A program made the translations under genes and the position numbers. Below the pieces are notes generated by a model. The model made no database searches and was not told the origin of the DNA. It worked only from the letters and a program-made list of their open reading frames with translations. Shown piece after piece: positions 38,474-41,336 of a DNA stretch of 64,000 bases; position 1 is the first letter of the stretch, and each line of letters opens with the position of its first letter. The DNA lies in the IMG/VR virus record IMGVR_UViG_3300031957_002393, positions 20,373-84,372 of that record; one strand, given 5' to 3'. This stretch comes from a virus. Taxonomy: Duplodnaviria; Heunggongvirae; Uroviricota; Caudoviricetes.

Positions 38474-38542
38474 GGGGTGATAGCTTAATGGAGAGCGGCA
38501 GGCGGCCACCTGCAGGTGAGGGTTCAAGTCCCTCAAACCCCT
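38474..38542 (+). tRNA. degenerate tRNA-like element (possible tRNA pseudogene; anticodon unclear)
   Basis: Good T-arm GAGGG-TTCAAGT-CCCTC and D-loop TAGCTTAATGG but acceptor has 2 mismatches and anticodon loop is 6 nt (GCAGG-CGGCCA-CCTGC). Confidence 0.3.
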
Positions 38543-38722: not shown

Positions 38723-39097
38723 ATGTACAAGCAGGTACTCATCTATCGACGTGACCTCAAGATGCGGAAGGGTAAGATTGCGGCGCAGTGTGCTCATGCC
38801 GCAGTGAGGTTGTGTGTCCAGTGTTTCACGTCGTCATTCACTGGCATCGATCGGTTGAGGGAATGGTACCATAGCGGCCAGAAGAAGATCGTGCTCAGCG
38901 TCGACACCCTTGAGGAGCTGTACGAGTTGCAGGCCCAGGCGGCTGTTGCAGGGCTACGCAACGCCATCGTGACTGATACAGGTGCGACGGAGTTTCACGG
39001 GGTAGCTACGGTCACTGTACTCGGCATCGGTCCCTGTACAGATGAAGAAGTCGATCCGATCACTCGCAATGGTGATGTTGCAACAAAGCTCGCATGA
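38723..39097 (+). CDS. pth2: peptidyl-tRNA hydrolase, PTH2 family
   Basis: KQVLIYRRDLKMRKGKIAAQCAHAAV matches PTH2 signature (human PTRH2 ...[21 protein letters not shown]...); SD GGGAG; sits between tRNA genes. Confidence 0.75.
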   Translation: MYKQVLIYRRDLKMRKGKIAAQCAHAAVRLCVQCFTSSFTGIDRLREWYHSGQKKIVLSVDTLEELYELQAQAAVAGLRNAIVTDTGATEFHGVATVTVLGIGPCTDEEVDPITRNGDVATKLA

Positions 39098-39219: not shown

Positions 39220-39855
39220 ATGCAAGGCACTACCATTCACCGCAACCTCCACCGCTGCCACCACCCTAACCTCAGCAGTATTCATGTTGCCCCTGGTGTA
39301 CGAGCGTTTATCGCATCTGGTGATGGGGTTTCGCTGTTCCATCCATCAGGCGCATTCAGTGTTGCGGCCCATGGGCATCGCACGGACATCGATCTGATTG
39401 TGTTGCAAGGTAGCTTGATCAACTGGCTTATGTGGCCAGGTATGTGTGTCGAAGCCAAACCTCATCACTTGGGGTTGTATGAGTTTGATTACGTGTCGGG
39501 CTTGATGTCTGGTGATGCCCCCGAGTTTAAGCCTACGGGATCTGTGCTTCATAGCTCTGCACCTAAAGCCTACTGGCTGCGCCTAGGCATGGGTATGCCG
39601 CTCGGGGCCGATGAGGTGCACACGGTTAGTTGTACGTCCGATGCTATCTGGTTGGTAGTTGAGCGACAGGAGCGACCAGTGCCACGAAAGGTGTACAGCC
39701 CAGTGAACACTGTTGCATCTTACAAGGATCTATATCAGACAATGTCTGATGAAGAGGCACGCGCTTATCTTAGGATCGTGCGAGGTCTTTGCGGCAAGCT
39801 GCGTAAAAAAGATTACACTCTCAACGACATTGACCTTCGCACGGAGCACGCATGA
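39220..39855 (+). CDS. hypothetical protein (211 aa)
   Basis: ATG 39220 with SD AAAGGA 9 nt upstream. Confidence 0.4.
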   Translation: MQGTTIHRNLHRCHHPNLSSIHVAPGVRAFIASGDGVSLFHPSGAFSVAAHGHRTDIDLIVLQGSLINWLMWPGMCVEAKPHHLGLYEFDYVSGLMSGDAPEFKPTGSVLHSSAPKAYWLRLGMGMPLGADEVHTVSCTSDAIWLVVERQERPVPRKVYSPVNTVASYKDLYQTMSDEEARAYLRIVRGLCGKLRKKDYTLNDIDLRTEHA

Positions 39856-40505
39856 ACAAGATCACTCCCCCCTACCCTACGCTACCCGAGTGGGTTGAAG
39901 CGAACAAGCCGAAGGATGAAATGCTGTGGAAGGGGGCATTTGAGCAAAGTGTTCTACGAATGATCGCGCTTACATCTTGGTGTGAAGCCGTTAAGGCACC
40001 TGCTCTGGTTGTCAGCACGCATACGTCCAAGTCGATCACGTTGCCCGTCATTCGATTCCAAACGGATCACGCTGCGTGGTGGATGCGTGATAACTTACAC
40101 GATGTAGAGCTTGCGTTCATGGCTGATCGCCCGATCAACGTTGACCTATCGGGCATCTTTCACTACATGAGTGCCGTCGATTATACGGCGGCGTTGAAGC
40201 GTGCTCGCGGTTGGCATGAGCGCCACGCCAAAGACAGCGAGTCGCTGCGCGATGTCAAACAGGGGTGGCTGCTCAAGTACCCCGACAACCTGGGCTGGTA
40301 CGAGCAGTACGGGGGCGGCAAGCTGGTGCGAGTTGGTGAGGCGGGGAGCCCGGAGGCTGTCTACTATATCCTTAGTAGGTGTTACAGACAGGGCATGGAG
40401 TATCTTGGCCTGCGGGACTGGTGCCCGGGCATGGCGGGAGGTACGATCTCTGTTGACGCCGATCGCGCCATGAAGTTTGTTGCAGCCTTCGAGTCGACCT
40501 GTTAA
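39852..40505 (+). CDS. hypothetical protein (217 aa)
   Basis: ATGA overlap with upstream gene. Confidence 0.4.
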   Translation: MNKITPPYPTLPEWVEANKPKDEMLWKGAFEQSVLRMIALTSWCEAVKAPALVVSTHTSKSITLPVIRFQTDHAAWWMRDNLHDVELAFMADRPINVDLSGIFHYMSAVDYTAALKRARGWHERHAKDSESLRDVKQGWLLKYPDNLGWYEQYGGGKLVRVGEAGSPEAVYYILSRCYRQGMEYLGLRDWCPGMAGGTISVDADRAMKFVAAFESTC

Positions 40506-40551
40506 ACTACTTTCAGGCCCCGATGGCGGAATAGGTAGACGTACGGGCCTT

Positions 40552-41240
40552 TGAGGAGCAATATGACATTGTACGCCGGCTATCGACTTAACGGGCCGTA
40601 TCTTCGACCTGATGGACGTAAGCACTTGGTAGTGGTTAAGCCCAACGGAAAGAAGACGACGCTATCTTACCCTAAGTATCTAATGGAGATGCACTTGGGC
40701 AGGTACTTGCTGCCTAATGAGTCGGTTGATCACATCAACAAGGACTTTACGGATGACAGGCTAGAGAATCTACAGGTTCTCACCCATTCCGAACACGCCC
40801 AACTTGATGCGAAAAGGCTGGTAGCTCAAACTTTTGAATGCCCTTGGTGTGAAAAGGAGTTTGAGCTTGTGGGCAAGAAGTTGTCTTACGCACTATCTAA
40901 CAGAAAGAGAGGCAAAGCTGGACCTTTCTGTGGTAGGAGCTGTGCGGGTAAATACGGCGCTTCCGTGCAAAACGGAGGTAAGCCTATTGCCTGTACCTTG
41001 ATTACTCCAGAGTACACTTGTCATAAGTTCACACAGAGCCTCAATCAAGAAACTGATTGAGTGGACGGCGCTAAGTCGGGGAAACCTTAACAGGTAACGC
41101 TGATGGCAATCCCGAGCTAACCCTAAAGGGTGAGTGTAGAGACTTTACACGCCGCACCTAAAGCTATTAGCTAAGGTGAAGAGAAAGTCCAGACTACAAA
41201 CAAACAGCTTGCGTTTGGCTACGAAAGTAGTAGTGGTAAG
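40552..41240 (+). mobile_element. group I-like intron (689 nt) in tRNA-Leu anticodon loop, carrying HNH homing endonuclease ORF
   Basis: Inserted after U34 (U at -1) and ends with G (41240), as for group I introns; 3' 180 nt contain GGGAAACC and AGACTA core-like strings; same insertion site as cyanobacterial/plastid trnL(UAA) intron. Confidence 0.55.
40563..41060 (+). CDS. HNH homing endonuclease (intron-encoded)
   Basis: ATG 40563 with SD GAGGAG; DHINKDFTDDRLENLQVLTHSEHAQ = HNH motif; C-terminal Cys cluster CPWC...CGRSC (zinc finger). Confidence 0.75.
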   Translation: MTLYAGYRLNGPYLRPDGRKHLVVVKPNGKKTTLSYPKYLMEMHLGRYLLPNESVDHINKDFTDDRLENLQVLTHSEHAQLDAKRLVAQTFECPWCEKEFELVGKKLSYALSNRKRGKAGPFCGRSCAGKYGASVQNGGKPIACTLITPEYTCHKFTQSLNQETD

Positions 41241-41336
41241 AAAAGCCTGTGGCCGATCGGTCGTGTGGGTTCGATTCCCACTCGGGGCACCATTCACACA
41301 AGGGCTGTTAAGCCCGCAACCCAAGGAGACATGCTA

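Follow-up and report, generated by a model that had tools for sequence, protein, structure and literature searches.

Can a transfer RNA (tRNA) gene that lies in two pieces in a phage genome still yield a tRNA, and what is the DNA between the pieces? The question is raised by a 64,000-nucleotide (nt) stretch of a Caudoviricetes genome (positions 20,373 to 84,372 of IMG/VR record IMGVR_UViG_3300031957_002393; hereafter the window), in which the two halves of a tRNA-Leu(UAA) gene lie at 40517–41292. An initial annotation, made from the letters of the window without database searches, had placed between these halves a group I-like intron encoding an HNH homing endonuclease. We consider it about 80% probable, judging from the sequence, that this tRNA-Leu(UAA) gene works and that its transcript splices itself in the usual two steps, initiated by guanosine. 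Positions below are those of the window, all features described in it are on its plus strand, and L-numbers are labels of the loci compared in this analysis.

A tRNA-Leu(UAA) gene split between U34 and A35

With introns allowed, ARAGORN called a split tRNA-Leu(taa) at 40517–41292, both in the local region and in the whole window, as i(36,689); in this call the anticodon starts at tRNA position 35 and the intron follows directly after the first anticodon base. The 5' exon (40517–40551) comprises the acceptor strand, the D arm, the 5' strand of the anticodon stem, C32, U33 and U34, and ends in ...CGGGCCUU. The 3' exon (41241–41292) begins AAAAGCCUG and comprises A35, A36, the 3' strand of the anticodon stem, a 15-nt variable arm, the T arm (also a local Rfam match), the acceptor strand, the discriminator A (41289) and an encoded CCA (41290–41292). 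The acceptor strands, GCCCCGA at 40517–40523 and TCGGGGC at 41282–41288, pair at 7 of 7 positions. When the exons are joined computationally, ARAGORN recognizes a canonical class II tRNA-Leu(UAA) cloverleaf of 87 nt and 62% GC, with a long variable arm, a 7-bp acceptor and the UAA anticodon in a CUUAAAA loop; a synthetic intron-less allele would read ...ACGGGCCTT|AAAAGCCTGT... across the same junction. The intron search thus returned the gene at the coordinates, and with the acceptor, CCA and loop, that the initial annotation had given.

At default settings the gene goes unseen: neither default ARAGORN nor Rfam at its gathering threshold found the tRNA or the intron at 40517–41292. The same two tools placed six other tRNAs in a tRNA island at 38.3–43 kb, and a portal/adaptor protein, a thymidylate synthase, a helicase and a metallophosphoesterase encoded in the window match PHROG families, which bears out the earlier description of a phage tRNA island. 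A complete, unsplit tRNA-Leu, which the initial annotation had named as a finding that would speak against it, was sought with ARAGORN with introns allowed, and no second tRNA-Leu was found in the 64-kb window. No sigma-70-like promoter or intrinsic terminator was found around the locus, and the split gene is part of a same-strand gene run, so that co-transcription with its neighbours is probable.

Searched by BLAST against INPHARED, the locus, a 20-kb stretch and the portal protein gave no match, so this phage has no sequenced close relative there. A metagenomic contig of this kind could in principle be an assembly chimera, or could hold two tRNA halves that stand side by side by chance, but we regard this as hardly credible. 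The window matches an independent Logan assembly (L013) at 100% identity over 39749–41114, a stretch that crosses the 5' exon–intron junction and stops before the 3' junction, so the 5' junction at least is no assembly artefact. Two loci from other samples (L014 and L086) share the architecture, and the halves complement each other exactly, with a covarying ribozyme between them.

The intron has the core of a group I ribozyme

The intron spans 40552–41240 (689 nt), between U34 and A35, and is supported by ARAGORN, Rfam and covariation. In a local Rfam search, the full Intron_gpI model (RF00028) aligned to 41020–41207 with a score of 33.7 bits (E 1.1e-6). Of the Rfam check proposed with the initial annotation, the match therefore stood, while the score stayed below the 50-bit gathering threshold. 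The same model gives 74.9 bits to a Nostoc tRNA-Leu intron and reported none of four other compact phage introns (tRNA-Leu, 34/35) at E ≤ 0.01; this general model seems to under-score the compact phage clade. Because 33.7 bits lies below the gathering score, the structure was examined by comparison of relatives.

We aligned 19 phage tRNA-Leu introns (alignment A1) and derived from the window sequence a structure in which P3 and P7 cross to form a pseudoknot; the helices tested for covariation were P2, P3, P4, P5/P5a, P6, P7, P8, P9.0, P9a and P9. Standard pairing occupied 90.5% of cells, compared with 28–46% when the partners were slid by 1–3 columns, and 32 of the 53 pairs had compensatory changes on both sides. 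None of 500 shuffles matched any observed covariation measure. Compensatory change was most frequent in P3 (6/6 pairs), P2 (7/9), P9a (5/5) and P9 (4/5). MAFFT misplaced a one-base gap in J3/4 in three sequences, which blurs P3; the counts come from the uncorrected alignment, and the P3 figure is therefore conservative. No variation was seen among the relatives in P7 (GACUU/AAGUC) or in the R and S elements, and P7 is for that reason uninformative for covariation. A minimum free energy (MFE) fold of 41030–41240 alone gives P2, P4–P6, P8 and P9, with z = −2.6. The P3–P9 core on which the earlier reading had been staked thus both folds and covaries, with P3–P8, the P3/P7 pseudoknot and the R and S elements all in place.

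From 5' to 3', the structure begins with P1, whose 3' strand, CAGAG (41034–41038), is predicted to pair with C40549–U40551|U40552–G40553, leaving a loop (L1) of 480 nt between the strands. In this predicted pairing the guide GAG (41036–41038) faces exon C40549–U40551, C41034 and A41035 face U40552 and G40553, and U40551•G41036 forms the wobble at the splice site, within CUU|UG / CAGAG. The guide stands in the context CACAGAGCC, immediately upstream of P2, and GAG is kept at its alignment position in 18 of 19 relatives (L014 has GGG). P1 does not covary because both of its sides are almost invariant.

P2 is a hairpin at 41040–41061, CUCAAUCA(A)/(C)UGAUUGAG, which has a GAAA-type loop, contains the stop codon of the open reading frame (ORF) described below and appears in the MFE fold; all 7 of its inner pairs are changed on both sides among the relatives, and its counterpart in L014 is UUCGUCGG-GAAA-CCGAUGAA. 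Another candidate for the guide, the GAG at 41059–41061 within this hairpin, was rejected, since ORF-less relatives, L038 and L014 identify the hairpin as P2 and it covaries as such.

The 5' strand of P3, CGGCGC (41066–41071), pairs with ACGCCG (41149–41154) apart from an outermost C·A mismatch; in L014 the helix reads CGUCG/CGACG. The P4–P5 domain (41076–41115) consists of P4 (UCGGGG/UCCCGA; 100% of cells paired, 3 pairs compensatory), J4/5 (AAA), P5 (CC/GG) and P5a (CAG/CUG), and is recovered in the MFE fold. P6 (41116–41135) consists of GCU/AGU plus ACCC-UAAA-GGGU, its third pair being GC in 8 introns, CG in 6 and UA in 5. The R element GUAGAGACUU (41137–41146) contains the 5' strand of P7, GACUU (41141–41145), and the S element GAAGAGAAAGUCC (41179–41191) the 3' strand, AAGUC (41185–41189). 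Between them, after the 3' strand of P3, lies P8 (41155–41178; CACCU/AGGUG, inner AGCU/AGCU), with 3 compensatory pairs and support from the MFE fold. The 3' peripheral domain (41194–41236), likewise present in that fold, has P9.0 (CUAC/GUGG) around P9a (CAAAC/GUUUG) and P9 (GCUAC-GAAA-GUAGU); L9, like L2, is a GAAA-type loop. The initial annotation had singled out two core-like strings near the 3' end: GGGGAAACC, at 41078–41086, is a genuine core element (P4/J4-5/P5), whereas AGACUA, at 41192–41197, falls in J7/9–P9.0 and is not the R element.

The intron ends at G41240 (omega-G), and the 3' end GGUAAG|AAAA is conserved across the relatives, which upholds the exon U at −1 and the terminal G of the earlier reading. 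By homology to the tRNA-Leu family and by its P2/L2-GAAA and L9-GAAA architecture, the intron would carry the subgroup label IC3. A bulge–helix–bulge intron of the kind spliced from tRNAs by proteins is ruled out by the length of 689 nt, by the position at 34/35 rather than 37/38 and by the covarying group I core.

An HNH endonuclease gene fills the P1 loop

The HNH ORF (40563–41060; 165 codons and a TGA) fills L1 and continues through the internal guide sequence (IGS) into P2. Its ATG at 40563 is 11 nt into the intron, 4 nt downstream of a Shine–Dalgarno (SD) sequence, GAGGAG (40553–40558), and its stop codon (41058–41060) lies inside the 3' strand of P2. The protein contains an HNH_3 domain (35.6 bits; Pfam cut-off 24.8), in agreement with the SD-led HNH gene first annotated here, and matches PHROG HNH families (phrog_14913, E 8e-23). 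Among 45 homologues the catalytic His...Asn...His is retained (motif DHINKDFTDDRLENLQVLTHSEH), with H57 and N69 invariant and H78 present in at least 90%, and a C-terminal CxxC...CxxxC module is also conserved. An AlphaFold model built from the homologue alignment reached a pLDDT of 92.9, and the protein was scored as resembling in fold a solved member of the I-HmuI-like HNH enzymes; PDB searches by sequence and by Foldseek found nothing for the HNH protein.

These features suggest how the locus may work. It would be co-transcribed with the neighbouring genes; P1 would form between the guide GAG (41036–41038) and exon CUU, the splice site being marked by a U•G wobble; and the compact core, from P2 to P9 with the P3/P7 pseudoknot and the GAAA loops L2 and L9, would fold next. 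An external guanosine would attack the 5' splice site, and the freed 3'-OH of U34 would attack after the terminal G41240, to give the 87-nt tRNA-Leu(UAA). The exons would be kept together mainly by the anticodon stem. Zaug et al. reportedly described just this in 1993 for the Anabaena intron (cited in PMC3984707), with its short P1 and its exons held by the anticodon stem, and by analogy exon alignment here probably relies on the anticodon stem as well. The 480-nt L1 with its SD-led gene would yield an I-HmuI-like HNH endonuclease, which likely nicks or cuts the intron-less tRNA-Leu alleles of co-infecting related phages, so that repair from the intron-bearing copy would spread both the intron and the endonuclease gene. 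Since the ORF extends over the guide and P2, a given transcript should be either translated or spliced, but not both.

Several points weigh against this account. The Rfam score is below its threshold. P1 is short (3 exon and 2 intron pairs) and P10 is not evident, since the GAG follows CA and not UU. Between the 5' splice site and the guide lie the 480 nt of the L1 insert, and the overlap of the ORF with the IGS and P2 means that ribosomes could block folding. P3 and P2 have terminal mismatches (C·A in P3, and a loop-proximal A·C in P2). Because the window covers 64 kb of its source, JGI contig Ga0565006_000107, which is 92.5 kb long, a second, intact tRNA-Leu may lie elsewhere on that contig. 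Finally, the locus is known from sequence alone, and from that we infer splicing, cleavage specificity and homing.

The low Rfam score, the short P1 without P10 and the two terminal mismatches could also be the marks of a decaying relic, in which the insertion inactivated the tRNA-Leu, the ribozyme no longer splices and the locus drifts. This is very unlikely in our view: both exons are intact, with the acceptor paired at 7/7 and all arms canonical; all core helices are intact, and 18 relatives share the same R and S elements and terminal G; and the HNH ORF is of full length, with its SD sequence present and its catalytic residues conserved.

Related introns split phage and bacterial tRNA genes

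Relatives of the intron were found in IMG/VR with two core 18-mers, which matched 10 and 60 viral contigs, the 60 being those that contain the S-element 18-mer TGAAGAGAAAGTCCAGAC. According to ARAGORN, most of the matching contigs contain tRNA genes split in the anticodon loop. About 20 distinct split tRNA-Leu(UAA) genes were recovered, with introns of 201–270 nt where there is no ORF and 661–776 nt where there is one; related introns also split tRNAs for Phe, Thr, Arg, Asn, Lys, Met and Tyr, and a tRNA with a UCA anticodon. Unannotated relatives of the intron are common in phage tRNA genes, the ORF-less ones interrupting tRNA-Leu and other tRNAs in dozens of IMG/VR contigs.

The architecture of the window intron (tRNA-Leu(UAA), position 34/35, the same HNH lineage in L1, an ORF that starts between +10 and +15 and an IGS at the 3' end of the ORF) was found again in five or more further phage contigs from metagenomes. 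In a Logan contig (L014) the HNH protein shares 56% identity with that of the window; core identity there is about 77%, and P2, P3, P5a, P6 and P9 have compensatory changes. HNH identity is 52% in L086, 44% in L072 and 38.5% in L038/L048/L064. The closest ribozyme is that of L042, an ORF-less intron of 206 nt with 77.6% core identity, in which an L1 of 9 nt takes the place of the ORF. In the ORF-less relatives generally, exon (A)CUU pairs with a conserved ...UUGAG... 6–10 nt downstream to form a short P1 hairpin, with P2 directly after it.

Other ORFs lie in related introns. The L074 intron has an unrelated HNH gene in L1, that of L053 an antisense ORF in the P6 region, and that of L135, from a gammaproteobacterial metagenome-assembled genome (MAG), an antisense HNH gene. 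The statement in the initial annotation that the ancient tRNA-Leu(UAA) introns at this site are ORF-less therefore does not hold for tRNA-Leu(UAA) introns without exception, given these other HNH families in phage contigs and in the gammaproteobacterial MAG and the HNH gene reported in a Bacteroidota tRNA-Leu(UAA) intron (PMC13011429).

The insertion site itself is widely used in bacteria, and the correspondence drawn earlier with the cyanobacterial trnL(UAA) intron is correct: a scan of one genome per species found at least 48 bacterial tRNA-Leu(UAA) genes with an intron at 34/35, from cyanobacteria, Acidobacteriota, Proteobacteria, Planctomycetota and others. The core of the window intron is homologous to those of bona fide members of this family. 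Over 207 shared columns it is 61–78% identical to phage cores, 58–66% to proteobacterial and acidobacterial cores and 53–58% to cyanobacterial cores; the proposed alignment to trnL(UAA) introns thus confirmed the homology and put the window intron closer to the phage and proteobacterial/acidobacterial introns (58–78%) than to the cyanobacterial ones.

Two phage records in GenBank also contain such introns. In the cultured jumbo phage Agrobacterium phage Atu_ph07 (MF403008.1, ~112.9–113.25 kb, minus strand; L212 1253–1614), an unannotated tRNA-Leu(UAA) is split at 34/35 by a 278-nt intron, and a 'hypothetical protein' coding sequence is annotated over part of it. The 735-kb metagenomic phage LR756501.1 (L211 1460–1750) has an unannotated tRNA-Leu(UAA) split at 34/35 by a 205-nt intron.

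The search also turned up loci of other kinds. Among L034, L052, L068, L073, L055, L069 and L075, some have two split tRNAs about 300 nt apart, a tRNA-Arg(UCU) with a 205-nt intron and a tRNA-Leu(UAA) with a 237-nt intron, and others have a UCA-anticodon tRNA (opal-suppressor-like; 'SeC' in ARAGORN) with a 222-nt intron. In eight IMG/VR loci (L029, L033, L045, L051, L059, L060, L065 and L084), ARAGORN called 'tRNA-Phe(gaa)' with a 202–258-nt intron ending in C; a one-base shift of the junction gives U at −1, a terminal G and a CUUAAAA loop (UAA) in a 76-nt class I body, and the identity of these genes is ambiguous. Two Candidatus Pacearchaeota MAG contigs from GTDB (L099 and L122) match the core pattern, with tRNA-Asn(GUU) split by introns of 258 and 423 nt in ARAGORN. 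Since archaea are said to lack group I introns (PMC3984707), these contigs, labelled as DPANN, are either misbinned or noteworthy.

Around the S-element match of about a third of the matching contigs (L028, L031, L032, L036, L037, L043, L056, L057, L070, L076, L079 and others in IMG/VR) ARAGORN showed no split tRNA, and in GenBank matches lie, among others, in the Pelagibacter phage HTVC120P capsid gene and the Vibrio phage VEN terminase gene. The ribozyme clade therefore also occurs in protein-coding genes.

Free-standing homologues of the endonuclease adjoin tRNA-Leu genes

Searching IMG/VR with the HNH protein led to a different arrangement. All 11 loci found in this way have a free-standing homologue inside a tRNA island; Intron_gpI had no match at E ≤ 0.001 at these eleven loci, and ARAGORN made one intron call flanking an HNH gene among them (L007, tRNA-Gly). 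Closer metagenomic homologues are also mostly free-standing in tRNA islands (6 of the 8 whose context was looked up). An unsplit tRNA-Leu (UAA, CAA or UAG) follows at most of the 17 free-standing loci, its 5' end either about 40 nt or less from the end of the HNH frame or overlapped by that frame. Different contexts were seen at L085, where tRNA-Leu(UAA) is just upstream; L002, with tRNA-Ala downstream and tRNA-Leu upstream; L004, where it is upstream on the opposite strand; and L007, which has none. Free-standing homologues also occur in the cultured phages Salmonella PVP-SE1 and Klebsiella phage KP2025 and in E. coli podophages (record: 'homing endonuclease | tRNA-Arg').

At two of these loci, L015 (~1960–2000) and L090 (~1475–1500), a 23–35-nt 5' fragment of tRNA-Leu, consisting of the acceptor strand and D arm, adjoins the start codon of the HNH gene, and a complete tRNA-Leu adjoins its stop codon. 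Such fragments may have been left behind by intron loss or by recombination that the endonuclease drove. Intron-borne and free-standing HNH proteins intermix in a neighbour-joining tree, which was built without support values. As far as the sequences go, the pattern would fit the capture of an endonuclease by an intron and the reverse process equally well.

That close homologues stand free beside unsplit tRNA-Leu genes, in metagenomic contigs and in cultured phages, means that this HNH family works without an intron, and it brings up another reading of the window, in which the intron splices and the HNH protein no longer homes it, having been domesticated or otherwise put to use. It might then serve as a weapon against the tRNA-Leu loci of co-infecting phages, drive recombination or amplification of the tRNA region as SegB does, or help splicing. 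The mixing of the two kinds in the tree speaks for this reading, as do the non-homing roles of SegB beside the T-even tRNA genes (PMC13096335). We nevertheless think it unlikely, although less so than decay of the locus: the catalytic residues are conserved, homing endonuclease genes are classically arranged in this way, within an intron at a conserved tRNA site, and the presence of the HNH gene in L1 recurs in divergent tRNA-Leu exon contexts, as mobility predicts. A homing endonuclease that acts on intron-less tRNA-Leu alleles remains the reading that we prefer for the protein.

Two further genes of the window's own tRNA island may be recorded here. ARAGORN reported at 38474–38542 a tRNA of undetermined identity with a two-base anticodon '(gc)' and an irregular anticodon loop, to which Rfam gives 43.8 bits as a tRNA, and a gene with a Pfam match to PTH2 (peptidyl-tRNA hydrolase) lies at 38723–39097 (L012 161–535), between tRNA-Phe and tRNA-Lys.

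Discussion

The nearest known counterpart of the ribozyme is the cellular and plastid tRNA-Leu(UAA) intron family, with which it shares the host gene and the insertion point at 34/35 (PMC13011429). The likeness extends to a UUGAG-type guide, AAAUUCGGGGAAACC in P4, AAUCCYGAGC in P4', GUGYAGAGACU in R, a GAAA L9, a short P1 and a core that aligns throughout. Unlike those introns, that of the window resides in a phage rather than in a cell or plastid, has a much more compact P6 and P8, holds a 0.5-kb endonuclease gene in L1 and scores 33.7 Rfam bits against 74.9 for Nostoc.

Endonuclease genes do occur in bacterial tRNA introns, and I-SspI is the enzyme of one such intron, in the tRNA-fMet gene of cyanobacteria. 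Besides this intron (Bonocora & Shub 2001; PMC3984707), a 2026 survey of complete bacterial genomes only found 12 long introns among 333, including one with an HNH gene in a Bacteroidota tRNA-Leu(UAA) (PMC13011429). These introns resemble that of the window in being group I introns of a tRNA anticodon loop that encode a homing endonuclease, in the Bacteroidota case with the same tRNA and the same enzyme superfamily; they differ in that they reside in cellular genomes, where they are rare (12/333). On the side of the enzyme, the HNH nicking endonucleases encoded in phage introns (I-HmuI, I-HmuII, I-BasI, I-TwoI and I-PfoP3I) are among the closest known systems. The homologues that stand free beside tRNA-Leu in phage tRNA islands recall SegB of T4/T6, F-CphI beside psbA, and mobE/I-TevIII, although SegB is a GIY-YIG enzyme and F-CphI is EndoVII-like. 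A free-standing homing endonuclease gene that targets the insertion site of an intron has been proposed as the state before capture, in the collaborative-homing or intron-capture pathway of Bonocora & Shub (PMC6083498, PMC2790892, PMC2988022), and the free-standing homologues beside tRNA-Leu would match that state.

All components of the window locus are thus known: the tRNA-Leu(UAA) intron, tRNA introns with endonuclease genes (one of them HNH, in a Bacteroidota tRNA-Leu(UAA)) and HNH genes in phage introns. The phage tRNA setting and its scale seem to be undescribed so far. A full-text literature search, whose coverage is incomplete and which is weak evidence, did not turn up any account of group I introns in phage tRNA genes, and a 2014 review places all phage introns in protein-coding genes. 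We tentatively propose, at somewhat under even odds, that compact IC3 introns have a large, overlooked reservoir in phage tRNA genes, and that a single HNH lineage associated with tRNA-Leu has repeatedly passed from a free-standing position beside tRNA-Leu to the P1 loop of the tRNA-Leu intron or back.

If this is true, the statement of the 2014 review would be contradicted, and the loci would form a natural before-and-after series showing how an ORF-less ribozyme and a free-standing endonuclease are put together into a mobile group I intron, or how such an intron comes apart. Because an ORF-less intron (L042), introns with the HNH gene in L1 and free-standing HNH genes beside tRNA-Leu coexist, the endonuclease-capture pathway is directly testable. 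The phage ribozymes of about 200 nt are, in our judgement rather than by a survey of sizes, among the more compact natural group I introns, and might serve as engineering scaffolds.

Default tools miss the window gene, Rfam misses four relatives and the Atu_ph07 copy is unannotated, so phage tRNA complements are probably undercounted. Such undercounting would bear on studies of codon usage, anti-defence and stop-codon recoding; one relative splits a UCA suppressor-like tRNA. If the proposal is true, the intron with its HNH gene would be part of phage–phage competition over tRNA islands. The ancient tRNA-Leu(UAA) intron circulates in phages, which could plausibly account, as vectors, for its patchy occurrence among bacterial phyla.

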